A DNA stretch of 64,000 nt from Deltaproteobacteria bacterium (GTDB lineage Bacteria > Myxococcota_A > UBA9160 > UBA6930): NCBI GenBank assembly GCA_029261815.1, contig JAJDAQ010000061.1, forward strand, positions 23,965 to 87,964, given 5' to 3'. Of the stretch, positions 43,135 to 56,859 are shown piece by piece. The notes under the pieces were generated by a model. The model searched no databases and was not told the origin of the DNA. It was given only the letters and a program-made list of their open reading frames with translations. Numbering within the stretch: position 1 is the stretch's first letter; each line of letters opens with the position of its first letter. The translations under genes were made by a program, and so were the position numbers.

Positions 43135-43977
43135 TCAGGCAGGCGGGACTTCGTCCTTGCCGAGGGTGAGGACCTCGACGCCATCGTCGGTGACCAGGAG
43201 CGAGTGCTCCCATTGCGCCGAGAGTGATCCATCGGCGGTGACGGCCGTCCAACCATCGTCGAGGATCTCGGTCCGCCAGTGGCCGAGGTTGATCATCGGC
43301 TCGATCGTGAACGTCATGCCGGGCAGAATGCGGTCGCCGCTATTCGGCTTGCCGTAGTGGAAGATCGTGGGGGCCGTATGGAATTCCCGGCCGACGCCAT
43401 GACCCGTGAACTCGCGAACGACGCCATAGCCCTCGCCTTCGGCGAACTGTTGGATGGCGTGGCCGATGTCGCCCGTGGTCCCACCCGGCTTCACCGCGCG
43501 GATGCCGAGCCACAGGGCATAGCGCGTGTCAGCCACCAACCGCTTGACCTTGGGCGTGGCGGAGTCGCCGATGATGAAGGTGCGCGACGAGTCTCCGTGG
43601 AAGCCGTCGAGGATCGGCGTCACATCAACGTTCACGATGTCGCCGTCCTGCAGAATGCGATCCGTGTCAGGGATCCCGTGGCAGACGACATCGTTCACCG
43701 AGGTGCAGCAGTGGCCCGGGAACGGCGGAGAACCGTGGCCCTTGTAGCCATAGGGAGCCGATATCGCGCCGCCCGCCTGGGTCACTTCGTCCACGAGGCG
43801 ATCGACATCGGCTGTGCTCATACCGGTTTGGATCTGCTCTGCGACCTGATCCAGGATTTCACCCGCGAGCTTGCCGGCTGCGCGCATCGTGTCGGCCTCG
43901 CCAGGCGACAACACAGGCGGTCCGCCGCGGCGCGAACTGCGGCCGGGGACCTTTCGCTTCTTGATGCGCTTGACCAT
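43135..43977 (-). CDS. map: Methionine aminopeptidase type I
   Basis: CHGIP, NVDVT, HGDSSRT, GHGVG, FTIEPM, QWEH. Confidence 0.96.
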   Translation of the reverse strand: MVKRIKKRKVPGRSSRRGGPPVLSPGEADTMRAAGKLAGEILDQVAEQIQTGMSTADVDRLVDEVTQAGGAISAPYGYKGHGSPPFPGHCCTSVNDVVCHGIPDTDRILQDGDIVNVDVTPILDGFHGDSSRTFIIGDSATPKVKRLVADTRYALWLGIRAVKPGGTTGDIGHAIQQFAEGEGYGVVREFTGHGVGREFHTAPTIFHYGKPNSGDRILPGMTFTIEPMINLGHWRTEILDDGWTAVTADGSLSAQWEHSLLVTDDGVEVLTLGKDEVPPA

Positions 43978-44050: not shown

Positions 44051-47000
44051 TCAGCCGGCTTCGTCGTCCAATAGGCCAATGAGATAGGCCCGCATGTCGG
44101 CCGGCGCGACGATCTCCTCGAGAGAGCCGACCTCCCGGGCCCGTTCGACCGAGTGGATCCGATCGAACTCTTCGGCCATCTCCTGCTGCTTCTCAAGCAG
44201 GACATCGGCATATCCGCGCTCGTACGCCAGGCGCGCGGCATCACTCTGGTCACGTTCCCGGGCGAGCTCAACCACCCGTGGATCCGCCACCGCTCGCGCG
44301 CGGACTTCCCTTCCGAAGACGACCTTGGCAGCCGGCCCGCCGCCGATCACCGACGCATAGGATCCTTCCAGCGCGGAGGCGCGCAGCCGCGGGTTCAGCG
44401 CGCGGGAGAAGACGACGTAGGCGCCGCCGTGATAGCGCGAGACCACCAGGAACAGGATCGGTCCATCGAAGTTCACCACGGCGCGCGCTATCTCGGCGCC
44501 GTACTCGAGCTGGAGCTTACGCATCGACTCGGGCGATCCGTCGAAGCCCGAGAGGTTCGCCAGGATCACGACCGGCCGGTTGCCGCTCGCGGCATTCAGC
44601 GCGCGCGCCACCTTCTTGGATGACTGCGGGAACAACGTCCCGCCATTCCAGGCATCGGGGCCATCGTGGGGACGGAAGCCGTCGCGGCTCACGTTCTGAC
44701 TCTCGATCCCGACCAAACAGACGGGATCACCTCCGAGGTGCGCGTCCCACACGATCGCGGTTTCTGCGCCGACCCAGCTCCGCCAGCGTTCGAGGTGACC
44801 GCCGTCTTGATCGATCACCGCGTGCATCACAGCGCGCATCGAGAAGGGTCGCTTTCGGCCCGGATTCGATTCGCCCGAGAAGATCTCGCCCACCGAAGAG
44901 AACTCGCTCGTGGTCTCGATCGTGTGCTCGCCAACGCTGCGGGTGGCGGGGTCGCCGCTCTCGGTGCCGCGGGGCCCGGCTTCGCCCGGAACCACGTAGG
45001 TGTAGCGGTAGTGCTCGTAGAGGATGCGGAATGCTTCGGCGAGGTCGCCGGCGAAGTATTGCGCCTGGCCATTCGGCCCCATGATGCGCTCGAAGCCGCC
45101 GATCGCGGCCTCGTCTTCCGCGGATACGGAACCGGATGCCTCGAGCGCCGCTCGCCCGGTCAACACCATCGAGGCGTTCTGCGTCATGATCAGGACGCCG
45201 CGGGTGTGCATCAGCATTGTGGACAGCGCGTCCCAATAGCTCTGCGCGCCGACGTTCACACCCGCAATGATGAGATGGATCGTTCCGCCAGTCTGGGTGA
45301 ACTCGATGATTCGCCGCACGACGCGGGCCGTGGCATCAAGGTTCTCGGTCCCACTATCCATCGCGATACGGGCGCCGGACGAAACCGGGATCCACTCAAG
45401 CGGTACACCGCGCTTTTCGGCGAGGTCGATCGCGGCCACGATGCGATCGCACTCGGCACCCGCGAGCGAACCCATTCCGCGCGTCGGATCGGAAAGCACG
45501 ATCACGCGCTCCATTCCCTCCGGGACCTTCTCCGTCGGTGTCGTGATCCGCCCGATGACCACGCCGCAAGTGTTCTCGCCATAGGCGCGGCCGGAAACGC
45601 TGACCGCTGTCGGAGTGGGCGCGGCCGGGTCGAGGTCGTACTCCTCGAAGTCGCCGGCAGGCAGATCGAGGTCCGGATCGACGCCAGAGGCTGCGCGCCC
45701 CGAACCCGTCAACATGCGCACGATCTCGTATGGGTAGACCAGCCGACGTCGGCGCGCGTCGACGACCTTTCGCTCGTAGTCGCTATGCGGCAGCAGAACG
45801 CTCCGCCTCGGTTCGCGCATGAGGATGGTCATGCTCATCCCCGTCACGTTCGAAATCACGACCTCGAGTTCGCGACTCGGACGTTCAGGCGCGTCGCGGT
45901 CGAGCGTGCGGAGCCGGGCGACGACCTTCTCCAAACCCAGGTTTCGTGTGGCCGGCGCCAGCTTTCGCGACAGTCGCTCGGACACTTCAGGGCCGAGGAA
46001 GACCTCGGCACCGAGATAGATCGCGATGCGGTTCCACTGGAGCCGACGCTTGGGGTCGCGCTCGCGAAGGATGCTGCGCAACAGTCGCGTCGCTTCGTGG
46101 AACGCGTGCTCGAACGCGGGTAGGTGGAGATCCGCCTCGTGGCCGTCTTCTGGTGAGCGCGTTCGCAGGTCGGCGAGAACGAAGATTCGCTCGTCCCCGG
46201 GTTCGTCCTTTGCCCGGCCGTGAAAAGCGTAGATCCCCTCGCTGGTCGCCACCGCCTCGAGGTCGAAGCCCGAGAGCCGCTCCAAGTCGACACGGTCTGC
46301 GGCTTCCGGGTGCAGGCCGTGCAGGCGAGCGTCTTCGCGATACCCCGTCGGCGTCGGCAGGAATGTCCGATGGCGGTCCGGCGCGTGGTCACGAACCTCG
46401 GTCACGGTCAGCCGACCGGCCGGGAGCCCATCGCCGAGAAGCGGCGCGAGCGCCGCCTCGACGTCGAGTGCGTCGTCCTCGGATTCGGTGCGCGTGAAGA
46501 GTTCGAGCGCGTGCACCGAGGGCCACTCGTGGGACTCACGGCCGCGGCGCGCCTCGTCCATCAGATGCGCCGCCGTACTGGCGAGTGTCTCGGGTGCGCA
46601 TGCGCCACCGATGACGACGCGGCCGCCCGGAAGTTCCATCCGCTCGAGCCAGTGTTCGCCCTCGCGAATCGTGGCTTGCTCGACGGGGATCTCCGGCGAG
46701 AACGCGCGACGGAGATGCGCCGCGAGTGCGATCGCGCGCCGTCGCGGATCCGGATCCGAAACCCAGCCCCCGACACGGTCGAACACCGCGCGCCTAGCGT
46801 CTGCCAGATCTCGCAGGACCCGCTCGGGCGGTGCTGTGGGCTGACTCGCAGCAGTGTCGAGCCATCCCTGAACGCCCTTGGTCGTTCTCTCGGCCTGCGT
46901 CTCGACCTCGGGCCGCTCGAAGATTTCGTAGTGAGCCTCGATCGCAGCATCCGCCACGAGGTGGGAAACCAAGCCACGCATTCCGGACACCGCATCGAGT

Positions 47001-49624
47001 GCGCGCGCCAGGACTGCATCCCCGCTCATATGGACGCCGCGGCGCGCCAGCGCGACCAGCCGACGGAGCATCGCCAGGCCCAGCCGGTCGCGGAGTTCGG
47101 GTTGGCGCTGGGTCGCCAACAAGCGAAGCACGGCGCGTTCGACCGCGTCGTTGGGGGTCAGACTCCCGATGCCATAGTGCCCAAGCGCCGCGCGCACCAG
47201 GTCGAGGTACGCCTCATCGAGCCCGGCGCCACCGGCGCGAACGCGGCGAGCGTACATTCGCAACCGCGCCTCGTTCGACGGGCCGTGGTCCCCGGCGATC
47301 GACGCACCGGGCGCGCGAATGAACAAGCGCGCCACGTCAGCAAGGGCCACCAACTCGGAGCGGATCTCGGCGAGCTCCCAACAAAAGGCATCTGAGACGT
47401 CGTCGGGAACTTCAGCTTCGAGGAAGCGTCCGAGCGCATCGGCCCGTCCCGGATTTGCGTCATAGCCGAGCAACACCCGGCGGGTCTCTTCCCGAACGCC
47501 CGCGATGGCGGAACGGCGCTGCGCGAGTGGAGCGCGATCCGCGGCCGAAAGGTCCGGGACTCCCAAAGGTTCACCCTGCATCGGCGCGAAGAGAGGCTCG
47601 AGCGGATCGTCCAGCTCGGCCAATGCGATGCGCGCGGCGCCCGCCTCTTCGTCGCCATCGGCCTGCGGGTCGATGACCAGGATCACGTCGCCAGCAGCAA
47701 CCTGCTCGCCCTTTCGGACGCGGACTTCGGTCACCACGCCGGCCACGGGCGCATCGAATCCGACTTCCATCTTCATCGCTTCCAGGACGCCGAGCGCCTG
47801 ACCACCCTTGACCACGTCACCGGGCTGCACATGGATCGTAACGACCATCGCGGGCGCACCGGCACGAACCTGGCCCGCCGTCTGCGACGAGAATGCGTAG
47901 GCGCGGCCCTCGACTTCGACACGCATGCCGACGTCGCCGACGTCGTAGAGGATACGAAGTGTCTCGTCGCCGATCTCGAGACGCGCAGTGTGCGCACCCT
48001 CCTCGCGAAGCGTTGCGCCAACAACCCGACTGTCGAGATGCACGCGGTAGCGCCAGGCTCCGAGTGCGAACACCTGGAGCCGGTACTGCTCGCCCTCATA
48101 GGAGAGATCGATCTCTTGACCCTGACTCGCCCCGACACGGGAAAGGTTCGATGCGTCTGCGAAGAAATTCAGTCGTTCGTTCGCGCGGTTCCGTTGATAG
48201 GTGAGGATCGCCGCGGTCACCAACGCGGATGCGTCATGGCCTGCATCGTGCGATCGCGCGTCGCCGAACCGATCGAGCCAGGTCGTATCTACGGCGCCAC
48301 GGCGATAGTCCGGGTGTTCCAGGATCTCGGCGATGTATCCCTTGTTCGTTGCGCCACCCTCAATGACGAGGTCGAAGTCCGCAAGCGCCGCGACCAGACG
48401 GGCGCGTGCCTCTTCCCGCGTGGACCCGGTCGCAATGACCTTGGCGATCAGCGAGTCGAACGCCGCAGGGACCACGCTACCGCTCGCAACCCCGGTATCT
48501 ACGCGAATGCGTGGCCCGAGCGCAGGCTCGAAGCGCGCGATGCGGCCGGGTGCCGGCAGGAAACCCTTGTCTGGATCTTCGGCGCATACACGCGCCTCGA
48601 TTGCGTGGCCCTGCTCGACGATCACGAGGTCAGCCAGAGACTCGCCGCGGGCAATGCGGATCTGGGTCTGTACGAGATCGATGCCCGTGATCTCCTCCGT
48701 GATGCCGTGCTCGACCTGGAGTCGCGGATTCATTTCGAGAAAGCTGTATTCATCGCCGGAAACCAGGAACTCGACGGTGCCGACGCCGGCATAACCGACT
48801 TCGCGCGCGATCTTGGTCGCGGAGTCCTGGATCCCCTGCAGCACGGCCGGAGCAAGACCCGGCGGCGGTGCTTCTTCCAGGACTTTCTGGTGGCGACGCT
48901 GCACCGAACAGTCGCGGGTGCCGACGGCATGCACGTTGCCATACAGGTCTGCAGCGATCTGCACTTCGATGTGGCGCCCACCCACGACCTTCTTCTCGAC
49001 GAAGAGGCGGCCGTCTCCGAACGCGGCCTGGGCTTCCGACGCCGCCGAGGCGAACGCGGTCTCGAGGTCTGCCGGGTCATCGACGACCCGAATGCCACGG
49101 CCCCCGCCTCCGGCCGACGCCTTGACCACGACCGGGAAGCCAATGGCTTCTGAGTGACGCCGGGCATCTTCGGCTGTCTCGAGAACACCACGGCTCCACG
49201 CAGTGACGGGAACAGCCACCGACTCCGCCAGGTGCTTCGATCCGATCTTGTCCCCGAGAGCGCGCATGGCATCTGCCTGGGGGCCGAGGAATCGGATTCC
49301 CTCTTCGGCGAGGCGATCGACGAATGCGGGGTCTTCGGCGACGAAACCCCAGCCCGGCCAGACCGCATCCGCGTCCACGGAGCGGATGGCGTCGATCAAT
49401 GCGCCGTGGTCCAGGTACGCAGCGACGCCGACGCCGGCGAGTCGAACCGCGAGATCTGCATGTCGCACGAACGGTGCGTCGCGCTCGACCTCGGTATACA
49501 ACGCGACCGCCTGGAGATCCGAACCCTCCTGGGCGCGTAGTGCCTTCACGGCGCGAATGCACCGCATCGCGGACTCGCCGCGGTTGGCAATGGCGAGCCG
49601 CCGGATCGGTTGGAAGCCGCTCAA
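44051..49624 (-). CDS. Single-chain multidomain acyl-CoA carboxylase (BC-BCCP-central-CT)
   Basis: ANRGE, GGGGRG, RDCSVQRRHQK, EMNPRLQVEH, EAMKME, SSGARI, ANLSGFDGS, GGAYVV; TTG start overlaps upstream TGA. Confidence 0.93.
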   Translation of the reverse strand: MSGFQPIRRLAIANRGESAMRCIRAVKALRAQEGSDLQAVALYTEVERDAPFVRHADLAVRLAGVGVAAYLDHGALIDAIRSVDADAVWPGWGFVAEDPAFVDRLAEEGIRFLGPQADAMRALGDKIGSKHLAESVAVPVTAWSRGVLETAEDARRHSEAIGFPVVVKASAGGGGRGIRVVDDPADLETAFASAASEAQAAFGDGRLFVEKKVVGGRHIEVQIAADLYGNVHAVGTRDCSVQRRHQKVLEEAPPPGLAPAVLQGIQDSATKIAREVGYAGVGTVEFLVSGDEYSFLEMNPRLQVEHGITEEITGIDLVQTQIRIARGESLADLVIVEQGHAIEARVCAEDPDKGFLPAPGRIARFEPALGPRIRVDTGVASGSVVPAAFDSLIAKVIATGSTREEARARLVAALADFDLVIEGGATNKGYIAEILEHPDYRRGAVDTTWLDRFGDARSHDAGHDASALVTAAILTYQRNRANERLNFFADASNLSRVGASQGQEIDLSYEGEQYRLQVFALGAWRYRVHLDSRVVGATLREEGAHTARLEIGDETLRILYDVGDVGMRVEVEGRAYAFSSQTAGQVRAGAPAMVVTIHVQPGDVVKGGQALGVLEAMKMEVGFDAPVAGVVTEVRVRKGEQVAAGDVILVIDPQADGDEEAGAARIALAELDDPLEPLFAPMQGEPLGVPDLSAADRAPLAQRRSAIAGVREETRRVLLGYDANPGRADALGRFLEAEVPDDVSDAFCWELAEIRSELVALADVARLFIRAPGASIAGDHGPSNEARLRMYARRVRAGGAGLDEAYLDLVRAALGHYGIGSLTPNDAVERAVLRLLATQRQPELRDRLGLAMLRRLVALARRGVHMSGDAVLARALDAVSGMRGLVSHLVADAAIEAHYEIFERPEVETQAERTTKGVQGWLDTAASQPTAPPERVLRDLADARRAVFDRVGGWVSDPDPRRRAIALAAHLRRAFSPEIPVEQATIREGEHWLERMELPGGRVVIGGACAPETLASTAAHLMDEARRGRESHEWPSVHALELFTRTESEDDALDVEAALAPLLGDGLPAGRLTVTEVRDHAPDRHRTFLPTPTGYREDARLHGLHPEAADRVDLERLSGFDLEAVATSEGIYAFHGRAKDEPGDERIFVLADLRTRSPEDGHEADLHLPAFEHAFHEATRLLRSILRERDPKRRLQWNRIAIYLGAEVFLGPEVSERLSRKLAPATRNLGLEKVVARLRTLDRDAPERPSRELEVVISNVTGMSMTILMREPRRSVLLPHSDYERKVVDARRRRLVYPYEIVRMLTGSGRAASGVDPDLDLPAGDFEEYDLDPAAPTPTAVSVSGRAYGENTCGVVIGRITTPTEKVPEGMERVIVLSDPTRGMGSLAGAECDRIVAAIDLAEKRGVPLEWIPVSSGARIAMDSGTENLDATARVVRRIIEFTQTGGTIHLIIAGVNVGAQSYWDALSTMLMHTRGVLIMTQNASMVLTGRAALEASGSVSAEDEAAIGGFERIMGPNGQAQYFAGDLAEAFRILYEHYRYTYVVPGEAGPRGTESGDPATRSVGEHTIETTSEFSSVGEIFSGESNPGRKRPFSMRAVMHAVIDQDGGHLERWRSWVGAETAIVWDAHLGGDPVCLVGIESQNVSRDGFRPHDGPDAWNGGTLFPQSSKKVARALNAASGNRPVVILANLSGFDGSPESMRKLQLEYGAEIARAVVNFDGPILFLVVSRYHGGAYVVFSRALNPRLRASALEGSYASVIGGGPAAKVVFGREVRARAVADPRVVELARERDQSDAARLAYERGYADVLLEKQQEMAEEFDRIHSVERAREVGSLEEIVAPADMRAYLIGLLDDEAG

Positions 49625-50229
49625 CCCACTGCTCCAGTCTCCAACGTACGACCCCTCAGGTCTGCGGCCCACGCGACGAATCGCCCATGGTGAGACAACG
49701 AGAGGTCTACCCCGGCGGGCGTGTCGCCGTTCATCAATACCGGTATGCGCTCTTCGCGCGCGACGGACAACCGCTCGGGCGGCTGACCAAGGTGCTGGGC
49801 CAGGCCTGCAACCGCGAGTGCGCGAGCCGCCAGTCCCTCGTCTTCGCCGACGGCGAGATGAGCGACCTGCCAACACTGCGCTTCTGCGCTTGGCGTTGCT
49901 GCGCTGACCAGCGCGTGGACATGCTCTCCGTCTTCTTCAACCCACATCGGAAACTTGTGGCCCGCGTGCTGCACGGTGCCAGAGAGGTTTGCGTCGAGCA
50001 GGACCTCGAAGCGACGCGGCGACCAGATGACGCTTGCGTCGAGTTTCTTGTGGACCTTGTACGCGGCTTCCTTCGCTGCCCAGTACATCCAGCGCAATCG
50101 GTCGGGCGCTCCGCTCGAAGCGAGGGCCTCACGCTCCGCGCGAGAGAAGACACGGGCGTCGAAGCGGACATGACGCGCTCCCGGCTGTGTGCTCGGGTGG
50201 CGCAAGTCGACGACATCATTGCCGATCAT
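49621..50229 (-). CDS. 4'-phosphopantetheinyl transferase
   Basis: IGNDVVD, WAAKEAAYK, SLSHHG. Confidence 0.9.
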   Translation of the reverse strand: MIGNDVVDLRHPSTQPGARHVRFDARVFSRAEREALASSGAPDRLRWMYWAAKEAAYKVHKKLDASVIWSPRRFEVLLDANLSGTVQHAGHKFPMWVEEDGEHVHALVSAATPSAEAQCWQVAHLAVGEDEGLAARALAVAGLAQHLGQPPERLSVAREERIPVLMNGDTPAGVDLSLSHHGRFVAWAADLRGRTLETGAVG

Positions 50230-50971
50230 CGAACCAGACCTTCTCCATTTCGACGAGCTTCGTGACGATCTGACGCGACAGGTCGAGCGAACCGCGCAAG
50301 CCACGTGCGTCCGTTTTCGGTTCGAGACATTCGAGCGAGACGCGGAAGGTTTCGCCCCGGACCGGGGACTTCGACCACGTCTCCTGCTGGTCACCTCTCA
50401 GGTAGACGCAAAGGACGCGGCACCCGGGAAGCGAAGACACGAGCCGACCGACCCCGTACGCGGCGCTGTCGACCTCCACGCGGCCCGTACGGCTGCGTCC
50501 GCCTTCTGGAAAGATCAGTGCGGTTTCGCCGCGTGCGACCAGGAATCGGATCTTCTCGAGAACCTGGGCCACCGCTTTTCGATCAGAGCCCCGCTCGACC
50601 GGAACGCACTTCAACAAGTAGGCGATCACTCGCTTCCACCAGGTGGAAGCGAAGTTCGCCTTCTCGGGCGTATTCCACGCCAAGGCCGCGAAGTCGCGCA
50701 GGTAGTAACGCGGACCCGCCAACGCCCACTCGATCGCGAACGAGTCGTACATCGTCAGGTGGTTGGCGCAGATCAGGAGAGGCGCATCCGACTCCGCCCG
50801 CAACCGGGCGAACTCCTCGCGAACGACGTCGATGTTCTCGACCCGCCAGCGCAGACCCCATCTCATCACTGCAGTGAAGATGGGAACCCACAGCGGCGAC
50901 AACAGACGGCTCACCGCATGCTGCCGAAGCAACGTGCGGCGCTCGCCATCCGCTAGCGCGCTCTCGGCCAA
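50216..50971 (-). CDS. PlsC-family lysophospholipid acyltransferase
   Basis: NHLTMYD (HX4D), FPEGGRS. Confidence 0.88.
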   Translation of the reverse strand: MAESALADGERRTLLRQHAVSRLLSPLWVPIFTAVMRWGLRWRVENIDVVREEFARLRAESDAPLLICANHLTMYDSFAIEWALAGPRYYLRDFAALAWNTPEKANFASTWWKRVIAYLLKCVPVERGSDRKAVAQVLEKIRFLVARGETALIFPEGGRSRTGRVEVDSAAYGVGRLVSSLPGCRVLCVYLRGDQQETWSKSPVRGETFRVSLECLEPKTDARGLRGSLDLSRQIVTKLVEMEKVWFDDRQ

Positions 50972-50980
50972 GGATCGCGC

Positions 50981-51226
50981 CTAGAGCTTCTGGCCGATGA
51001 GCGTCACGCAGTCGCCGATCGTGTTCACCGTGTCGACGTCTTCGTCTGCGATCTCGATGTCGAACTCGTCCTCGAAGGCCAGCACGACGTCGACCAGACG
51101 GGCCGAATTCACCTTCAGGTCTTCGAGCAGGTTCGTTGTCGGGCTCACGGACGCGAGCGCCTCTTGATCCTTCACGTAGGGCGTCAGGATCTTGACGACT
51201 CGTTCCTGGATTTCGGTGGTTTCCAT
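50981..51226 (-). CDS. Acyl carrier protein (NSAR motif)
   Basis: DLKVNSARLVDVVLAFEDEFDIEI; GAGGAG RBS. Confidence 0.92.
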   Translation of the reverse strand: METTEIQERVVKILTPYVKDQEALASVSPTTNLLEDLKVNSARLVDVVLAFEDEFDIEIADEDVDTVNTIGDCVTLIGQKL

Positions 51227-51308
51227 GGGTTCTCCTCTTCGAATATCGATGGCTTGAATACGGTTGGAATGAATGGGCGCGCTGCGAGAGGCACGACGAC
51301 CGGGTCGC

Positions 51309-52586
51309 CTAACCTTCCCACTTGCGGAGCAGAAGGGACGCGTTGACATCGCCGAAGCCGAAACCGGCTTTCATGATCACCTTGAGGTCCGGAATTTCGC
51401 GCATCTCGCTGGCGATCGATGCGGCGTGCGGCTCGATCTCGGGATGCACGTCCTCGCAGTTCAGCGACGGATGCACGAAACCTCCGTCGAGCATCAGGAC
51501 GGCTGCCACGGATTCGATCGCCCCGGCGGCGCCCAGGGTGTGCCCGATCATCGACTTCGTCGACGTGATGACCGGTAGCGCCCCGGGTTCGCGACCCAGC
51601 GCCTTCGCCCAACTCCCCACTTCGCGGGGGTCGGCCCCAGTCGCGGTCAGGTGCCCGCTGATGGCCTGCACCTCTGCGGGGTCGACTCCGGCCTCTTCGA
51701 TGGCGAGGCCGATGCAGCGACGAACCGCTTCGGGATTGGGCGCCGTCATGCTGCCGCCCATCCGGTGGCCCCCGCAGTTCACGCCGGTCCCCAGGACCTC
51801 GGCGTAGATCCGTGCGCCGCGGTCCTGTGCACTCTCGAGGCTCTCGACCAGGACCGCGCCGGCGCCGGCTCCCGGGACGAAACCTCCAGCCGTGGCGCTC
51901 ATGGGCCGCGATGCGCGTTCGGGCTCTTCGTTGAACTTGCGGCACATCACGCGCATCGAATCGAATCCTGCCCAGTTGTAGATACTGGGGACCTCGGCGC
52001 CGCCGCAGATCATGCGCTCCGCCTTGCCGGCACGAATCCGTGCTGCGCCGTCGACGATGGCTTCGACTCCGGTCGCGCAAGCGCTCGAATTCGTCGTGAC
52101 CTGGTTCCCGAGCGCGAAGAGGCCGGACAATCGCGCCGAAACGCCACTGGCCATGACCTGCTCCACCGCGGTAGATCCGAGACGACGCACCTTCTTGGCG
52201 TTGACCAGCGGGACGACGCGCTCGGCGATCGTATCCATGCCCCCGATTCCGGTCCCCATGATCGCGCCGGTTTCCCAATGGACGGTGTCGTCCGCCGCAT
52301 CGGGTTTCTCCAGACCGGCATCGAGCCAGGCCTCGAGCGTCGCCAACGACGCATAACGATGGATCGCGTTCATCGCGAGAAGCACTTCATCGTCGAATGC
52401 GGCTTCAGCGAGTGCATCCACGCCCTGCGGAACACCGGCGACCGTGCATCCGAATCCATGCTCGGCCATCTCTTCGACGTGGCGGATTCCGCTCTTGCCC
52501 TTCCGCAACGCTTGGCCGAACTCGGCCAGACCGTTCCCGTTCGGGGAAATGACACCCAGGCCCGTGATGACTACGCGGCGACTCAT
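51309..52586 (-). CDS. Beta-ketoacyl-ACP synthase II family
   Basis: SSACATG, GHLTAT, KSMIGHTLGAAG, GFGFG. Confidence 0.93.
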   Translation of the reverse strand: MSRRVVITGLGVISPNGNGLAEFGQALRKGKSGIRHVEEMAEHGFGCTVAGVPQGVDALAEAAFDDEVLLAMNAIHRYASLATLEAWLDAGLEKPDAADDTVHWETGAIMGTGIGGMDTIAERVVPLVNAKKVRRLGSTAVEQVMASGVSARLSGLFALGNQVTTNSSACATGVEAIVDGAARIRAGKAERMICGGAEVPSIYNWAGFDSMRVMCRKFNEEPERASRPMSATAGGFVPGAGAGAVLVESLESAQDRGARIYAEVLGTGVNCGGHRMGGSMTAPNPEAVRRCIGLAIEEAGVDPAEVQAISGHLTATGADPREVGSWAKALGREPGALPVITSTKSMIGHTLGAAGAIESVAAVLMLDGGFVHPSLNCEDVHPEIEPHAASIASEMREIPDLKVIMKAGFGFGDVNASLLLRKWEG

Positions 52587-53044
52587 ACCGTGACTCCGAT
52601 GCCGGCGAGCGTTCCGCTGCAGACGACCGTTCCGTCTTCGGTCTTCATCTCGGAAGCAATCTTGAGCTTCCGTCGCCGGTAGAAGACCCGCTGCGATTCA
52701 ACCGTGACCGTATCTCCCGGATAGACGGAGCGGTTGAACTCGATCTCGGCCTCCGTGAAGAAGGTCGTGATCTTCTCCGCCTCGTCCGCGTGGTCGCGGT
52801 AGCTGAAGAAGATGCCGAGCGGCACGACGCCGCACTGTGCCATGCATTCGATCAGCAGGACGCCGGGTGTCACCGGGTTCCCGGGGAAGTGCCCGCGATA
52901 GCATTCGAGCGCCGGATTCCAGGTGTACCGCCCGACGACGCGCTCGTCACTGAGCTCGAGGATCTCGTCAACAAAGCGAAACGGGTCCTGCTGCGGGATC
53001 AGCGGCAGGATCTCTTCGCGTGTGAGGATGCGGCTATCCGCCAT
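52583..53044 (-). CDS. 3-hydroxyacyl-ACP dehydratase (FabZ/FabA hotdog)
   Basis: PFRFVD, GHFPGNPVTPGVLLIECMAQ. Confidence 0.92.
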   Translation of the reverse strand: MADSRILTREEILPLIPQQDPFRFVDEILELSDERVVGRYTWNPALECYRGHFPGNPVTPGVLLIECMAQCGVVPLGIFFSYRDHADEAEKITTFFTEAEIEFNRSVYPGDTVTVESQRVFYRRRKLKIASEMKTEDGTVVCSGTLAGIGVTV

Positions 53045-53762
53045 ACATTCCTCCGTTGACGTGGATCACGGTTCCATTGACGTAGCTCGCACGCGTCGCA
53101 AGCCAGGACACAGCGTCGGCGATCTCTGCCGCGGCGCCCATTCGTCCGAGCGGAATACGGGACAGGATGCCCTCACGCACTGCCTCGGGGAGTTCCTCGG
53201 TCATCTCGGTGTCGATGAATCCCGGTGCGACCGAGTTCACCAGGATCGCGCGGCCGGCCATCTCCTGCGACAACGAACGCGTCATCGCATCGAGTCCAGC
53301 CTTCGCCATCGTGTACGGGACCTGCCCGGGGTTCCCGGTATGCCCGACGACGCTCGTAATGTTGATGATGCGCCCCGACTTCTGGCGAAGCATGAACCGA
53401 CGCAGCGCGAGCTTCGTCAGGTACCACGTACCGCGTTCGACAGCGCGGACGGCGTCGTAGTCGTTGATGCTCATCGCGGGCGTCAAGCCGTTGACGTTGT
53501 ACCCGGCGTTGTTGACGAGAACGTCGAGCCTGCCGGCTTCGGCTTTGATCGTCTTGATCATCGCGTCGATGTCGTCGGTCTGGGCGATGTCGCCCTTCAC
53601 CAGGAACGCGTCGGGAAGCTTCTCCGCGACTTCGCGCGCACCGGCTTCGCTCGAGCGGTAATGCACGCCGATGCGGAAGCCCTCATCCGCGAGGCCCTTT
53701 GCGATGGCGGCGCCAATTCCGGTCCCGGCGCCGGTAACGAGTGCGACCGGCGTCTCGCTCAT
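53034..53762 (-). CDS. 3-oxoacyl-ACP reductase (FabG-like)
   Basis: TGAGTGIG, NNAG, YTMAK, PGFIDTEMT. Confidence 0.9.
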   Translation of the reverse strand: MSETPVALVTGAGTGIGAAIAKGLADEGFRIGVHYRSSEAGAREVAEKLPDAFLVKGDIAQTDDIDAMIKTIKAEAGRLDVLVNNAGYNVNGLTPAMSINDYDAVRAVERGTWYLTKLALRRFMLRQKSGRIINITSVVGHTGNPGQVPYTMAKAGLDAMTRSLSQEMAGRAILVNSVAPGFIDTEMTEELPEAVREGILSRIPLGRMGAAAEIADAVSWLATRASYVNGTVIHVNGGMYGG

Positions 53763-54760
53763 TGTTCTTCTCCGAAGCGCACGAGTCCGTGCGCCCATGT
53801 CAGGCCCCCGCCCACGACCACGACCGCGACGTCGTCTCGGGGCGTGAACTTGTCCCACTGCATCGACAGGACAGACGGGGCGCTCGCGCCGCCGGTGTTG
53901 CCGCGAATATCCACATTGGCGTGGTGCCGCTCAGGCGGAATTCCGCAGCGCTTGCACACCTGATCGAGCACGCGGAGGTTCGCCTGATGACCGATGAAGT
54001 GGAGGTCGCGCGCATCACCGCCGTCGGCCGACAACTGGGCGACTTCTTCGTAGCCCTGACGGGTCTTTCGGATCGCGAACTTCTGGACGGCCGCGCCGTC
54101 TTGCGCGAAATAGCCGGTTCGTGGAATCACCACCTTGTGGGCACTCGCCGGGTCACTGGCCACCGAAGAGCCCAGGAAACGCGCACGCCCCGGTGTCCGG
54201 GTGGACACGATCGCGGCGGCGGCGCCGTCGCCAAACAACACGCAGCTTCCGCGGTCGTTGTAGTCGACGGTCGTCGTCAGGCCTTCGGTCGCCACGGTGA
54301 GTATGAACTCGGGTGTGCGCGCCGGGTCCATCATCGCCAAGTTCGCGAGCTGCGTCAGGAAGGTCGAGCATGCCGAGCTGATGTCGTAGGCGGGAACGTC
54401 GAGCCCCAGTTCGCCTGCAACGAAGCAGCCCTCGGCCGGTGTCGCCATCGTCGGTGACGAGGAACCACTGATCACGAGACCGATCTGCTCGGGCGCGATC
54501 CCGGCGCGCTCGATGGCGAGCCTGGCCGCCTCGGCACCCAGCTTGTACGTAGGCGTCTCGACCGCTTCCTGGGCTGCGCGCGTATCGACATTTCGCGTGT
54601 CCCGGATGTAGTCGAGAGGCAGCACGCTTCGGCGCGTACGAATCCCGACGCGATCGACGATCCACGAATCGCTGGTCCCGATGTCGAGCGACTCGAGAAA
54701 TGCGTTCGTGATCTCGGTCGCGGGATGCGCGTGGCCGACCGCGTGCAGGTGAAGACTCAC
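53759..54760 (-). CDS. Beta-ketoacyl-ACP synthase III (FabH-like)
   Basis: SACSTF, LFGDGA, HQAN, GNTG (Cys-His-Asn triad). Confidence 0.92.
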   Translation of the reverse strand: MSLHLHAVGHAHPATEITNAFLESLDIGTSDSWIVDRVGIRTRRSVLPLDYIRDTRNVDTRAAQEAVETPTYKLGAEAARLAIERAGIAPEQIGLVISGSSSPTMATPAEGCFVAGELGLDVPAYDISSACSTFLTQLANLAMMDPARTPEFILTVATEGLTTTVDYNDRGSCVLFGDGAAAAIVSTRTPGRARFLGSSVASDPASAHKVVIPRTGYFAQDGAAVQKFAIRKTRQGYEEVAQLSADGGDARDLHFIGHQANLRVLDQVCKRCGIPPERHHANVDIRGNTGGASAPSVLSMQWDKFTPRDDVAVVVVGGGLTWAHGLVRFGEEQ

Positions 54761-55701
54761 GCACTGCTCCCGGAAATATGCTCGCCACCGTCGATGCGAA
54801 TGATCTCGCCGTTGATCCACGCCGATTCGGGCAAGCACATCAGGTAGAGAACATTCGCAACGTCGGGCGGCGTGGTCAGCCGACCGTAGGGGTTGCGCAG
54901 GCGCGCATGCGCCTTGAGATGGTTTGCTCCCGGGATGGCTGCCAATGCCTGGGTCTCGGTCACACCGGGCTGGAGCACATTGCAGCGCACGCCGTACGGC
55001 GCAAACTCGGCCGCGATTGAACGCGCCACGGCTTCCAGCGCCACCTTCGCCGCCGAAACCGCCGCATAACCCTTCCACGCCAGGACGTTGCCCTCGCTGG
55101 TCAGGCCGAAGGTCCGTGCATCGGCCGCGAACAATCCCTTGCCGTGGATGTCCTGGACCCAGTCCAGCAAGCTCGTGCCCATCGTGTGGATGGTGCGTGC
55201 GACGTCACCAGCGTCCAGGTAGGAATACGCCGGATACTCGGGTTGCGACGAAATCTCGGCGACCTCGTCGAGGCCCTCCTCGAGGAGCGCATCGGCCGCT
55301 TCCACCAGCTTGCTTTCATCGATGCCCAGCTTGGCTGCGAGTTGCTTCGTCGCTGTACGTTCGCGGCGCTTCTCGGGAACGATCAGCTTGAGGTTCCCGA
55401 ACGCAATCGAATGAAGCAGGCACTTCACGCGGCCGGACTCGCCCATTTCGGACTGCAGTTCGGTCAACAGCTCGGCGCGCTTGTCGTCGGCAAGTGCGTC
55501 GGCGTTACGCGTCAGCACCTTCACGCCGGAACCCTTCAGCTTCTCGAACTCGGGCTCGATCCGCTTCATGGCGCCACGCCGGTCACGGTGGACGATGAAC
55601 AGGTTCATGCCGTGCGCGGCCAGCTTGTGGGCGCTCGCGAGGCCGAAGCCGCTCGAGCCACCCAAGATCAGGGCCCAGTCATCGCCCGTGAATGCACTCA
55701 A
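54757..55701 (-). CDS. FabL/FabI-like enoyl-ACP reductase (SDR)
   Basis: LILGGSSGFG, YAAVSAAK (Y-x6-K), TTPPDVA; TTG with AGGAGG RBS. Confidence 0.85.
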   Translation of the reverse strand: MSAFTGDDWALILGGSSGFGLASAHKLAAHGMNLFIVHRDRRGAMKRIEPEFEKLKGSGVKVLTRNADALADDKRAELLTELQSEMGESGRVKCLLHSIAFGNLKLIVPEKRRERTATKQLAAKLGIDESKLVEAADALLEEGLDEVAEISSQPEYPAYSYLDAGDVARTIHTMGTSLLDWVQDIHGKGLFAADARTFGLTSEGNVLAWKGYAAVSAAKVALEAVARSIAAEFAPYGVRCNVLQPGVTETQALAAIPGANHLKAHARLRNPYGRLTTPPDVANVLYLMCLPESAWINGEIIRIDGGEHISGSSA

Positions 55702-56088
55702 CGTGGATCCTCCTCGCCGACACGCGAAGACCACCCGCCTCCCGGTTCCACCGGGGCCAGATGCTTCCTCGTGCATGGGCTTTGCGGGGTTTCACCCCCT
55801 CCGCTTTTCAACCGAACGGGTGGAGCCCGGCCATTCCGGGTTGCCTGGACCCCAATTCCCCCGATCTGCGGACAGTGACCGGATGTGACTCCGAGTCATT
55901 TCCGCGATCGGGTTCAGGATCGCCCAAGCGCCGCGTCTGTCAACCCGCGTTGCCTGGCTCGAACAAGGCGCGTGCCGCGCCCCTCACCCGCGGGCAAGCA
56001 TCCCCCCAACCGGTGGGAGTGGCAAGGATTTCCTGGGATTGACACAGGACTTTGACACGCCGACGGCCCAGCCGCGCGTGGCCGGGCA

Positions 56089-56859
56089 CTAGCCCATCCA
56101 GGCGCCGTTGTTCGGGTCGAGGGCCTGGCCCGTGAAGGCCACGCCGGCTGGCGAGAGCAGGAAGGTCACGAGGCCGGCGATTTCCTCTGGCGCACTGATC
56201 CGTTGCAACGGCACGGCCGCAAGCTGTGCCGCCCGGGCGTCCTCGTACCCAAGACCCTCGTCAGCGCCGAGTTCGGTCATCCGCGCAACCGCCATGTCGG
56301 TCTCCACCCAGCCCGGGCAGATCGCGTTCACCAGGATGCCGCGCGCCGCCCATTCGGCGGCAAGCGACCGGACGAGGCCGAGCTGTCCGGCCTTCGCCGC
56401 GCTGTAGGCCGAGATCCCAGGCACGCCGAACCGGGCGACACATGAGGAAATGGCGATCGCGTGCTTGAAGCCACCGTCCGCCGCCGCGTGCCGTTCGAAC
56501 GCGCGAAAGCAAAAGTAACTGCCATCGAGGTTCGTTCGGACGATCTCGTCCCAGCGATCGTCCCCGTCGCCAAGGTCGTTGGGGCCGCCGACGCCGGCAT
56601 TGGCGACGACCGCGTGCAGGGGACCCTTGGCGCGGGCGACCTCGGCGAACCCTTGATCCACCGCGGCGCGATCTGCGACATCGACCGGGACCACGTGCGT
56701 CTCGCCCGGTGCTTCGGCCGCTACGGCTTCCAACGTCGCGCGCGTGCGACCCATCAAGGCCACGACTGCGCCGCGCGCCGACAGCTCCAGCGCGATCGCC
56801 CGACCGATCCCACTGCCAGCGCCGGTCACGACGGCAACGCGGTCGCTGAAGTCGGTCAT
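56089..56859 (-). CDS. Short-chain dehydrogenase/reductase
   Basis: TGAGSGIG, ANAG, YSAAK, CPGWVETDM. Confidence 0.92.
   Translation of the reverse strand: MTDFSDRVAVVTGAGSGIGRAIALELSARGAVVALMGRTRATLEAVAAEAPGETHVVPVDVADRAAVDQGFAEVARAKGPLHAVVANAGVGGPNDLGDGDDRWDEIVRTNLDGSYFCFRAFERHAAADGGFKHAIAISSCVARFGVPGISAYSAAKAGQLGLVRSLAAEWAARGILVNAICPGWVETDMAVARMTELGADEGLGYEDARAAQLAAVPLQRISAPEEIAGLVTFLLSPAGVAFTGQALDPNNGAWMG

Follow-up and report, generated by a model that had tools for sequence, protein, structure and literature searches.

A Nine-Gene FabA/FabB-Type Operon and Its Proposed Place in the Single Type II Fatty Acid Synthase of a Myxococcota Order

A nine-gene operon was found at positions 44,051–55,701 on the minus strand of a 64,000-nt stretch of DNA (hereafter, the window) from a Deltaproteobacteria bacterium (GTDB lineage Myxococcota_A; UBA9160; UBA6930; assembly GCA_029261815.1, contig JAJDAQ010000061.1, positions 23,965–87,964). 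In the direction of transcription, it encodes an enoyl-acyl carrier protein (ACP) reductase (ER), a FabH-like β-ketoacyl-ACP synthase III (KS3), a FabG-like reductase (KR), a FabZ-like dehydratase (DH), an elongating β-ketoacyl-ACP synthase (KS), a second ACP (ACP2), an acyltransferase (AT), a 4′-phosphopantetheinyl transferase (PPTase) and a single-chain carboxylase. We consider, with moderate confidence, that the operon represents a widespread "FabA/FabB-type" cassette of the type II fatty acid synthase (FAS II), which in this order is part of the single FAS II of the cell and not an extra line. The gene content, the intact catalytic residues, the conservation of the cassette and the absence of paralogues were observed directly in the genomes analyzed.

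The following scheme is proposed. Malonyl-CoA would be supplied by the single-chain carboxylase, and an unlinked FabD would load the malonyl group onto ACP. KS3 would prime the synthesis, and the elongation cycle would be run by the FabG-like KR, the FabZ-like DH, the FabL-like ER and the FabB/F-like KS. The AcpS-like PPTase would activate the carrier proteins, and the divergent PlsC-family AT would move acyl chains from ACP2 to a lysolipid acceptor. The resident FAS II of this bacterium and its order appears to have shrunk to fabH, fabD, acpP and fabF, and there the cassette would supply the only FabZ-type DH, the best FabG and, in most members of the family, the only PPTase. The cassette enzymes would also serve the canonical AcpP, for example, in the synthesis of lipid A. 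The enzyme activities, the service to AcpP, the acceptor of AT and the product are deduced from sequence.

Canonical Fatty Acid Synthesis Genes Outside the Operon

The genome carrying the window (G000; 4.9 Mb in 181 contigs, 89% complete) contains canonical fabD, acpP and fabF together on contig C27. FabD (350 bits) and FabF (551 bits) were both over the cut-offs of their models, and AcpP scored 105.9 bits. The end of contig C156 carries a truncated canonical fabH, of which the first 111 residues are present. Given this truncated gene and the canonical FabH of relatives, the assumption that the operon is the only source of FabH was rejected.

Only two genes of the genome matched PF07977, namely, the operon DH and an unlinked FabA on contig C118. 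The latter scored 210 bits against the NF003509 cut-off of 124, and it is likely to be the cassette's own fabA after relocation because it is 62–66% identical to the FabA proteins embedded in cassettes. This gene (C118:41734–42120; L086:3627–4220) stands alone between a PilZ-domain gene and an NYN/OST-HTH gene. A tblastn search of the genome with E. coli FabZ returned the operon DH as the sole match. With E. coli FabG, the best match was the operon KR (42% identity), which was also the best match to TIGR01830 genome-wide; none of the 57 listed TIGR01830 matches in the genome reached the FabG equivalog cut-off. The operon PPTase was the only PF01648 match.

The lipid A genes lpxA, lpxB, lpxD and lpxI were found, and the bacterium is predicted to make lipid A. 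The lipid A locus on contig C27 (L091) is organized as bamA, an open reading frame (ORF) of 296 aa, lpxA, lpxI, an oxidoreductase gene and lpxB. Both fabZ and lpxD are absent from their usual slots in this locus, and lpxD is located on contig C26. Since lipid A needs 3-hydroxyacyl-AcpP, the cassette enzymes would have to act on both AcpP and ACP2.

A third KS with two ACPs was found on contig C63 within an aryl-polyene/flexirubin-like cluster (L082:393–13705). This cluster includes genes for an aromatic ammonia-lyase, a KS with Ketoacyl-synt_2 (chain-length factor), an ApeI-like dehydratase, a halogenase-like flavoprotein, two AMP ligases, lysophospholipid acyltransferase (LPLAT) and lipid-A-type acyltransferases, a glycosyltransferase and the two ACPs.

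The initial annotation had described the operon as self-contained and had proposed an alternative FAS II or specialised-lipid pathway. Its own ACP, the carboxylase for malonyl-CoA supply and the acyl-transfer step were recovered, but a separate pathway alongside a complete canonical set is not supported in this genome. The canonical set is limited to fabD-acpP-fabF and the truncated fabH; a check for a separate fab/acc set returned these genes, including fabD, but neither FabZ, nor an over-cut-off FabG, nor accA. The annotation had set its reading against the operon being the sole FAS, and this applies in part, as the operon appears to be woven into the one FAS II here.

Fatty Acid Synthesis Genes in Related Genomes

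Related genomes were grouped into anonymous families (labeled f3, f4 and so on), and genomes of the same kin are not independent of each other. A KS orthologue (E ≤ 1e-100) was found in 62 of the 401 genomes of the phylum. It was present in all sampled genomes of four families of the same order (11/11, 2/2, 11/11 and 25/25) and, in other families, in 1/8, 2/14, 4/29 and 3/29 genomes. The PF07977 search covered 80 genomes, comprising 60 of the 61 other holders (G203 was left out, its KS being cut by a contig end) and 20 non-holders.

A stand-alone FabZ was found in none of the 50 cassette holders of the same order by this PF07977 search, in which MaoC/Had-type dehydratases were not searched. 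All strong PF07977 matches of these holders were either the cassette FabA/DH beside the KS, tandem FabA domains in large frames or, in four members of the window's family, an unlinked FabA. The closed genome G128 carries FabA (205.6 bits vs. the cut-off of 124) and the cassette DH only, and the near-closed genome G051, assembled into two contigs, carries the cassette DH alone. According to match counts, FabA is missing altogether in 7 of the 12 genomes of the window's family. The tandem FabA-like domains lie in frames of 800–2960 residues and resemble polyunsaturated fatty acid (PUFA) synthases of the PfaC type (G353:C46, G103:C82, G008:C475 and the chromosomes of G403 and G404).

Other lineages were found in both states. 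Family f11, from another order of the same class, has a canonical FabZ (89–115 bits) in 10/10 genomes, including two cassette holders, and the cassette occurs with FabZ in 4/4 genomes of f13. An extra FabZ beside the cassette was also found in Gemmatimonas, two Longimicrobiales chromosomes and one Acidobacteriota genome. In the complete genome of Syntrophus buswellii and another Syntrophales genome, only the cassette FabA and DH were detected.

As for the other components, the cassette PPTase was the only PF01648 match in 8 of the 12 genomes of the window's family. The best FabG of G128 is the cassette KR, and the cassette-free genome G198 has a FabG over the cut-off. Canonical AcpP (78–116 bits) was found alongside the cassette ACP (40–50 bits) in all 13 genomes checked, and canonical FabH (337–344 bits) was present in 4/4 near-complete relatives (G128, G051, G308 and G408); a search of S. 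buswellii found no canonical FabH. Both in the order of the window and, independently, in Syntrophales, the cassette is, at the level of gene inventories, probably the only source of FabZ-type activity and, probably, of FabG, and often also of PPTase activity.

Among the same-order genomes lacking the cassette, 8 of 12 were without any PF07977 match (G228, G313, G083, G073, G168, G178, G248 and G393; locus L096). In the closed genome G228, the only KS was found inside a hybrid of nonribosomal peptide synthetase and polyketide synthase (C-A-Ox-T, then KS-AT-KR-DH-ACP-TE), with an adjoining Sfp-type PPTase. This suggests that G228 is without a fatty acid synthase and may be a fatty acid auxotroph.

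Spread and Gene Order of the Cassette

A search for conservation of the cluster, as suggested in the initial annotation, revealed that the cassette family is widespread, with hundreds of holders that are mostly uncultured. In a scan with one genome per species, at least 593 relatives of the KS were found among 600 matched stretches. Metagenomes hold thousands of close KS relatives: a search at E ≤ 1e-20 scored at least 8000 candidates, and those listed (120) share 70–100% identity with the KS. The loci are labeled as Myxococcota/"Deltaproteobacteria" metagenome-assembled genomes, Gemmatimonadota (including one of Gemmatimonas aurantiaca), Longimicrobiales, Acidobacteriota, Binatia, Syntrophales (including the complete genome of S. 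buswellii) and a few others.

Synteny was counted in the best 80 of the at least 593 loci by tblastn with the window's proteins, and only loci with enough flanking sequence were included in each count. The most constant neighbors of KS were ACP (79/79), AT (77/77), DH (72/72), KS3 (64/64) and PPTase (67/71), whereas ER (42/58), KR (32/64) and the carboxylase (37/65) were less constant. The order of the tail is also conserved, with AT following ACP in 77/77 loci, PPTase following AT in 67/71 and the carboxylase following PPTase in 37/65. In 59 of the 64 loci, KS3 and KR/DH are separated by a gene with a strong FabA match (Pfam 2e-39 to 7e-41). The loci without fabA are the window, four close relatives (L009, L012, L032 and L053) and one Smithellaceae locus. 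The exact architecture of the window was found in 4 of the 46 fully covered loci. In the Syntrophales cassettes, a FabD-like gene is present and an acyl-CoA dehydrogenase replaces ER. The carboxylase is attached only outside the loci labeled Gemmatimonadota, Longimicrobiales, Acidobacteriota and Syntrophales, mostly under Myxococcota/Deltaproteobacteria labels.

The KS of the window is mostly 65–69% identical to those of the Gemmatimonadota/Longimicrobiales loci (57% for two Gemmatimonadaceae loci) and 59–62% identical to those of other families of its own phylum. This closer relation to the Gemmatimonadota/Longimicrobiales loci points to exchange of the cassette between phyla.

Enzymes of the Elongation Cycle

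Pfam, with every domain above its cut-off, backed each gene assignment of the initial annotation, and the gene order agreed as well. The catalytic residues of all five cycle enzymes and the serine of the ACP align with those of the E. coli counterparts. Thus, the operon has a discrete KS with Cys-His-His, a KSIII with Cys-His-Asn, a KR with Ser-Tyr-Lys, a hot-dog DH with His/Glu, an ER with Tyr-x6-Lys and an ACP with its pantetheine serine. At the same time, all nine proteins stay below the curated cut-offs of the NCBIfam equivalog models, so the label "atypical" given to several components is fair; the unusual ACP, KS and DH strings were all present, and those of the ACP (VNSARLVD) and KS (GHLTAT) are conserved as family signatures.

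ER (54,757–55,701, 314 aa) is a FabL/FabI-like short-chain dehydrogenase/reductase (SDR) starting with TTG behind a GGAGGA ribosome-binding site (RBS). It matches Enoyl_reductase (3e-8) and adh_short_C2 (1.5e-35), the latter as two stretches separated by about 60 inserted residues. Its score against the NCBIfam FabL model (NF005975) was 107 bits in two stretches, below the cut-off of 328. The closest solved structures are FabL of B. subtilis (3oic, the top PDB match) and 2,4-dienoyl-CoA reductases, and Tyr212-x6-Lys219 aligns with Y156/K163 of FabI.

KS3 (53,759–54,760), the putative priming synthase, matches ACP_syn_III (4e-16) and ACP_syn_III_C (2.3e-17) and retains the Cys131-His258-Asn288 triad. 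It scored 210.9 bits against PRK09352 (cut-off 249) and 170 bits against the FabH model TIGR00747 (cut-off 292.1), that is, below both. KR (53,034–53,762), a FabG-like 3-oxoacyl-ACP reductase (adh_short_C2, 1.4e-54), retains Ser137-Tyr150-Lys154 and reached 251.6–251.8 bits against TIGR01830, below the cut-off of 297.75.

DH (52,583–53,044), a FabZ-like 3-hydroxyacyl-ACP dehydratase (Pfam FabA-like, 5.1e-17), scored 79 and 83.8 bits against the FabZ models TIGR01750 and NF000582, below their cut-offs of 155.15 and 113, respectively. Its His52 and Glu66 align with H54 and E68 of FabZ. The IPQQDPF string belongs to the (I/L/V)PQQxPF motif family, which is found in most of the 74 orthologues covered.

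KS (51,309–52,586) belongs to the FabB/FabF family (ketoacyl-synt, 3.5e-33; C domain, 3.5e-27) and retains Cys170-His312-Lys344-His349. It fell below the cut-offs of both the FabF model TIGR03150 (295.3 vs. 493.75 bits) and the FabB model PRK07967 (269.8 vs. 630 bits). The top PDB matches are β-ketoacyl-ACP synthase I (KAS I)/FabB proteins (4xox, 7pps and 1dd8), and the identity is 37% to E. coli FabB and 33% to FabF. Around the first catalytic histidine, GHLTAT stands in place of HGTSTP in 120/120 listed orthologues.

ACP2, Acyltransferase and PPTase

ACP2 (50,981–51,226, 81 aa; PP-binding, 5e-7) differs from the housekeeping AcpP, as it scored 44.4 bits against TIGR00517, below the cut-off of 70.45. 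Its Ser41 aligns with Ser37 of AcpP, and NSA replaces the DSL motif. The sequence VNSARLVD, which takes the place of the usual DSLD-type motif, is invariant in 80/80 ACP2 orthologues. In addition, a six-residue insertion in a loop sets ACP2 apart from the AcpP of the same genome.

AT (50,216–50,971, 251 aa; PF01553, 1.6e-12) is a divergent member of the PlsC/LPLAT family and contains an HX4D motif (NHLTMYD) and FPEGGRS. It scored 34.8 bits against the AGPAT/PlsC model TIGR00530 (cut-off 102.95). Its only PDB match was a weak one to PlsC (5kym, E 0.19), and in the protein atlas, it matched only PF01553 clusters from Myxococcota. AT ranks 12th of the 14 PF01553 genes in the genome, two others of which score 122–128 bits. 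From these scores, the operon AT does not appear to be the housekeeping PlsC, and PlsC homologues of housekeeping grade seem to be encoded elsewhere in the genome. AT can be placed as a member of the superfamily, with a lysolipid as its proposed acyl acceptor.

The PPTase (49,621–50,229, 202 aa) has an AcpS-like N-terminal domain, which matches PF01648 (1.1e-11) over residues 2–107, and extends at the C-terminus by about 95 residues that gave no Pfam match. Its constant travel with ACP2 is likely explained by an ordinary AcpS that may not accept the VNSARLVD motif. ACP2 and AT, found together in every locus, look like a conserved dedicated branch. The proposal of a private ACP/PPTase pair therefore holds for ACP2, with AT as its partner, but not for the PPTase, which is the only PF01648 protein of the genome.

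Single-Chain Carboxylase

The last gene of the operon (44,051–49,624) encodes an acyl-CoA carboxylase of 1857 aa that depends on biotin and has six Pfam domains, all above the cut-offs: Biotin_carb_N, CPSase_L_D2, Biotin_carb_C, Biotin_lipoyl, ACC_central and Carboxyl_trans. The ACC_central match was 8.3e-7 (28.1 bits vs. the cut-off of 23.2), and the biotinylation motif EAMKME is present. The whole chain matched yeast acetyl-CoA carboxylase (ACC; 5csk) and human ACC1 in the PDB. The biotin carboxylase (BC), biotin carboxyl carrier protein (BCCP), central and carboxyltransferase (CT) domains in one chain correspond to the eukaryote-type multidomain ACC architecture. A second single-chain carboxylase in a frame of about 1150 residues was found at C86:60087–61529, and the genome has seven carboxyltransferase genes overall.

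An E. coli-type accA was not found in the window's genome, where the best score was 38 bits. The search for accA was extended to 73 of the 80 genomes searched for PF07977 and to 7 genomes reached through loci. The gene was found in 0/10 genomes of f11, 0/7 of f4, 4/4 of f13, one f3 genome (at a contig end) and 4/7 of the locus-reached genomes. We considered a replacement of AccABCD by the single-chain ACC and rejected it, as accA is absent across the class with or without the cassette. Therefore, no link between the carboxylase and the loss of AccABCD can be claimed.

Alternative Explanations

Several observations weigh against the assignment of the cassette to a single FAS II. The retention of AcpP in 13/13 genomes and of FabH in 4/4 would be compatible with an insulated second ACP system beside a working AcpP. 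The closed and near-closed genomes G128 and G051 each carry one further PPTase. The absence of PF07977 is not the absence of a dehydratase, as the MaoC/Had-type families were outside the search. A divergent FabI-like gene is located on contig C97 (120 bits vs. the cut-off of 337), so the operon ER may not be the sole reductase. The genome is only 89% complete, and its fabH, at the end of a contig, almost escaped detection. Finally, in some phyla, the cassette resembles an add-on; its presence together with canonical FabZ and accA in Gemmatimonadota, Longimicrobiales, Acidobacteriota and f13 argues for an original role there other than bulk fatty acid synthesis.

One rival reading, that of the initial annotation, is a specialised-lipid pathway, in which an insulated second FAS would work on ACP2 only and place a special acyl chain onto one lipid, with bulk synthesis carried out elsewhere. 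We regard this as rather unlikely. ACP2 is invariant in its motif and differs from AcpP, and it is always accompanied by a divergent LPLAT and nearly always by the PPTase; PlsC homologues of housekeeping grade lie elsewhere in the genome, which also has AcpP, FabD, FabF and FabH; and in Gemmatimonas, Longimicrobiales, Acidobacteriota and f13, the cassette occurs next to a complete canonical set. However, such a division of labor would leave AcpP-bound synthesis without a FabZ-type DH in this genome, in 50/50 same-order holders and in S. buswellii, and AcpP without a PPTase in 8/12 family genomes. Its universal retention in four families is also more in keeping with a core than with an optional function.

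The frequent FabA between KS3 and DH (59/64 loci) and the KAS I/FabB proteins as nearest solved structures of KS suggest another role, that of a transferable FabA-FabB branch adding cis-unsaturated chains to membranes by an anaerobic route. The unlinked FabA passes the NCBIfam FabA cut-off and is 62–66% identical to the cassette FabAs, and an operon of Coxiella (CBU_0034–0038) was assigned to unsaturated fatty acid synthesis by homology in the accessible part of its description (PMC5423948). Against this, the operon in the window has no fabA, 7/12 family genomes have no FabA at all by match counts, and KS is far below the FabB equivalog cut-off (270 vs. 630 bits). KR, ER, the carboxylase, the PPTase and the second ACP go beyond the needs of a FabA/FabB branch, and an unsaturated-chain module is thus an unlikely main function. 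A type II polyketide or aryl-polyene-like secondary-metabolite cluster shares the discrete KS, KR, DH and ACP, the LPLAT-type AT and the PPTase, but it appears highly improbable here: the operon has the full reducing set including ER, no chain-length factor, ammonia-lyase, thioesterase or tailoring genes were found by Pfam among the nine, and the real aryl-polyene/flexirubin-like cluster of the genome sits on contig C63.

We therefore retain, as the most probable reading, a cassette that forms part of the single FAS II in this order. A broader proposal can be made tentatively, namely, that a mobile, near-self-sufficient FAS II took over after transfer and displaced fabZ, fabG and acpS in this order and in Syntrophales, and that ACP2 with its LPLAT constitutes an undescribed direct route for newly made acyl chains from the dedicated carrier to a membrane lipid in at least 593 species of at least five phyla.

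Operon Layout, Neighboring Genes and a Candidate Operator

The nine gene models, all on the minus strand, were built with starts picked from inspection of start codons and RBS and from homologue length. From 5′ to 3′, the junctions are overlaps of 4, 4, 11 and 4 nt, gaps of 82 and 9 nt and overlaps of 14 and 4 nt; the KS3 start overlaps the ER stop by 4 nt, and the TTG start of the carboxylase overlaps the PPTase stop by 4 nt. Six of the eight junctions thus overlap, which agrees with the "mostly overlap-coupled" arrangement noted initially. The absence of FabD was likewise corroborated, as no Acyl_transf_1 domain was found by Pfam among the nine proteins and fabD is located on another contig, and the gene order is indeed unlike that of a standard fab cluster. 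The GC content of the operon stretch is 0.64–0.68, compared with 0.659 genome-wide. A promoter/terminator scan gave no promoter-like sites and 4 terminator-like sites vs. 7.5 expected.

A type I methionine aminopeptidase gene (43,135–43,977, same strand) lies 73 nt downstream of the carboxylase. This position is kept in the four closest loci, and no terminator-like site was found between this gene and the operon. Upstream, two genes translationally coupled via ATGA (56,089–56,859 and 56,856–59,666) encode a DnaQ-exonuclease/DinG helicase fusion and a classical SDR (SDR2). SDR2 is FabG-like but below the cut-offs, and it is retained, at 70–74% identity, solely in the four loci that share the architecture of the window. 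In many loci of the order, DinG adjoins the cassette on the upstream side.

The palindrome TGACT-N3-AGTCA (TGACTCCGAGTCA, 55,886–55,898) is located 185 nt upstream of the ER start, in a 387-nt gap, and represents a candidate operator by its sequence and position. It is the single match in the window, and at least one match occurred in 4 of 100 shuffles. Genome-wide, there are 3 matches vs. about 1.4 expected, another of which, at C80:6936, lies about 12 nt before a second FabH-like ORF (L085:3961 = C80:6960). In close relatives, two copies of the palindrome are found at the same place, and it also recurs upstream of the ER genes in L009, L032 and L053. In 23/62 loci, the looser form TGAC-N5-GTCA was present within the 450 nt that precede the first gene of the cassette, against a background of 0.028 per kb in the same loci, and all 23 are outside the loci labeled Gemmatimonadota, Longimicrobiales, Acidobacteriota and Syntrophales. 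The recurrent form is TGAC(T/C)-N3-(A/G)GTCA, with a site just upstream of the cassette in 5/5 further genomes.

The possibility of one regulon with the canonical fab genes was unsupported, as the other sites in these five genomes lie away from FabA, AcpP and FabH, with one exception, a site beside a second acpP-like gene in G408. In the window's genome, the palindrome was not found near fabA, fabD-acpP-fabF or the FabI-like gene. No regulator was found at the paired palindrome in G128, where the neighbors encode a YdjC-like protein and a Somatomedin_B protein.

Comparison with Known Systems and Significance

The operon is real and conserved, and we class it as a FAS II variant, not as a system of a new kind. 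Like the dissociated FAS II of E. coli, it has discrete FabH, FabG, FabZ, FabB/F, ER and ACP components with the catalytic residues kept, and the FabA partner of the E. coli FabA/FabB branch is present in the cassette family (59/64 loci) and unlinked in this genome. It differs from the E. coli system in that its parts are below the equivalog cut-offs, ER is FabL-like and not FabI, and the GHLTAT and VNSARLVD signatures are present. The operon also adds a second ACP, an LPLAT, a PPTase and the single-chain carboxylase.

In rhizobia, the acpXL-fabZXL-fabF2XL-fabF1XL-lpxXL cluster for very-long-chain fatty acids combines a dedicated ACP and FAS II paralogues with an adjoining acyltransferase that places the product on a lipid. 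This cluster has no PPTase, ER or carboxylase and runs beside a complete FAS II, and LpxXL is a lipid A acyltransferase of family PF03279. In contrast, the AT of the window belongs to PF01553, and no PF03279 match was found among the nine proteins.

The nine-gene operon, ACP2 and the acyltransferase were not described in the full-text literature searched, in which the nearest system was the five-gene operon CBU_0034–CBU_0038 of Coxiella burnetii (PMC5423948). According to the accessible part of that comparative-genomics paper, this operon encodes ACP, FabB, FabZ and FabA, together with FabH, is ordered like an operon of Spirochaeta africana, is assigned to unsaturated fatty acid synthesis by homology, and its transfer from a deltaproteobacterium or a spirochaete was inferred (PMC5423948). 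Compared by gene order and not by sequence, it shares the core order FabH-FabA-FabZ-FabB-ACP with the cassette. As far as the accessible text goes, it has only five genes, whereas the operon of the window lacks fabA and additionally has ER, KR, AT, PPTase and ACC.

As for the carboxylase, SACE_4237 of Saccharopolyspora erythraea is described, in the part of the source available, as a multidomain acyl-CoA carboxylase that is essential, supplies malonyl-CoA for fatty acid synthesis and carboxylates acetyl- and propionyl-CoA, and such enzymes are placed there among actinobacteria (PMC6491548). The likeness, drawn from domain architecture in that partial account, is that BC, BCCP, ACC-central and CT form a single chain. 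In the literature searched, SACE_4237 was the only characterized bacterial carboxylase of this build found. Unlike it, the operon carboxylase comes from a Myxococcota-labeled lineage and is translationally coupled to fab genes, which extends the "eukaryote-type" single-chain ACCs beyond actinobacteria.

The AGPAT domain of the myxobacterial PUFA synthase has an off-loading role. The synthase Pfa3 includes such a domain, according to the accessible part of its description (PMC6731297), and is the closest precedent for a PlsC-type AT tied physically or genetically to a synthase and its ACP. This tie suggests a direct hand-off of the ACP-bound chain to a lysophospholipid. The difference is that Pfa3 is a type I megasynthase for polyunsaturated chains, with AGPAT as one of its domains, whereas the AT here is a free-standing protein of 251 aa in a type II system. 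The "ladderane" cluster of anammox bacteria (amxACP-amxFabZ) similarly groups an unusual ACP with variant FabZ/KS paralogues apart from the standard fab genes, as stated in the available part of the source (PMC10139942). This likeness is one of description; the taxa and the gene set are different, and no LPLAT-PPTase-ACC tail is mentioned in that part.

The finding added here is that, in this lineage, the operon probably belongs to the single fatty acid synthase of the cell. FAS II is regarded as a core pathway passed on by vertical descent and also as a target for antibiotics. In whole lineages, core FAS II genes appear to have been replaced by a transferable fab cassette, which coexists with them in others. 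This would form a natural series from "add-on" to "take-over", with cultured examples in Gemmatimonas aurantiaca, which has a spare FabZ, and Syntrophus buswellii, which has none. For metabolic reconstructions of uncultured Myxococcota, a missing canonical fabZ or acpS need not mean fatty acid auxotrophy. In addition, the conserved ACP2 and AT may represent an as yet unassigned step in the assembly of bacterial membrane lipids.

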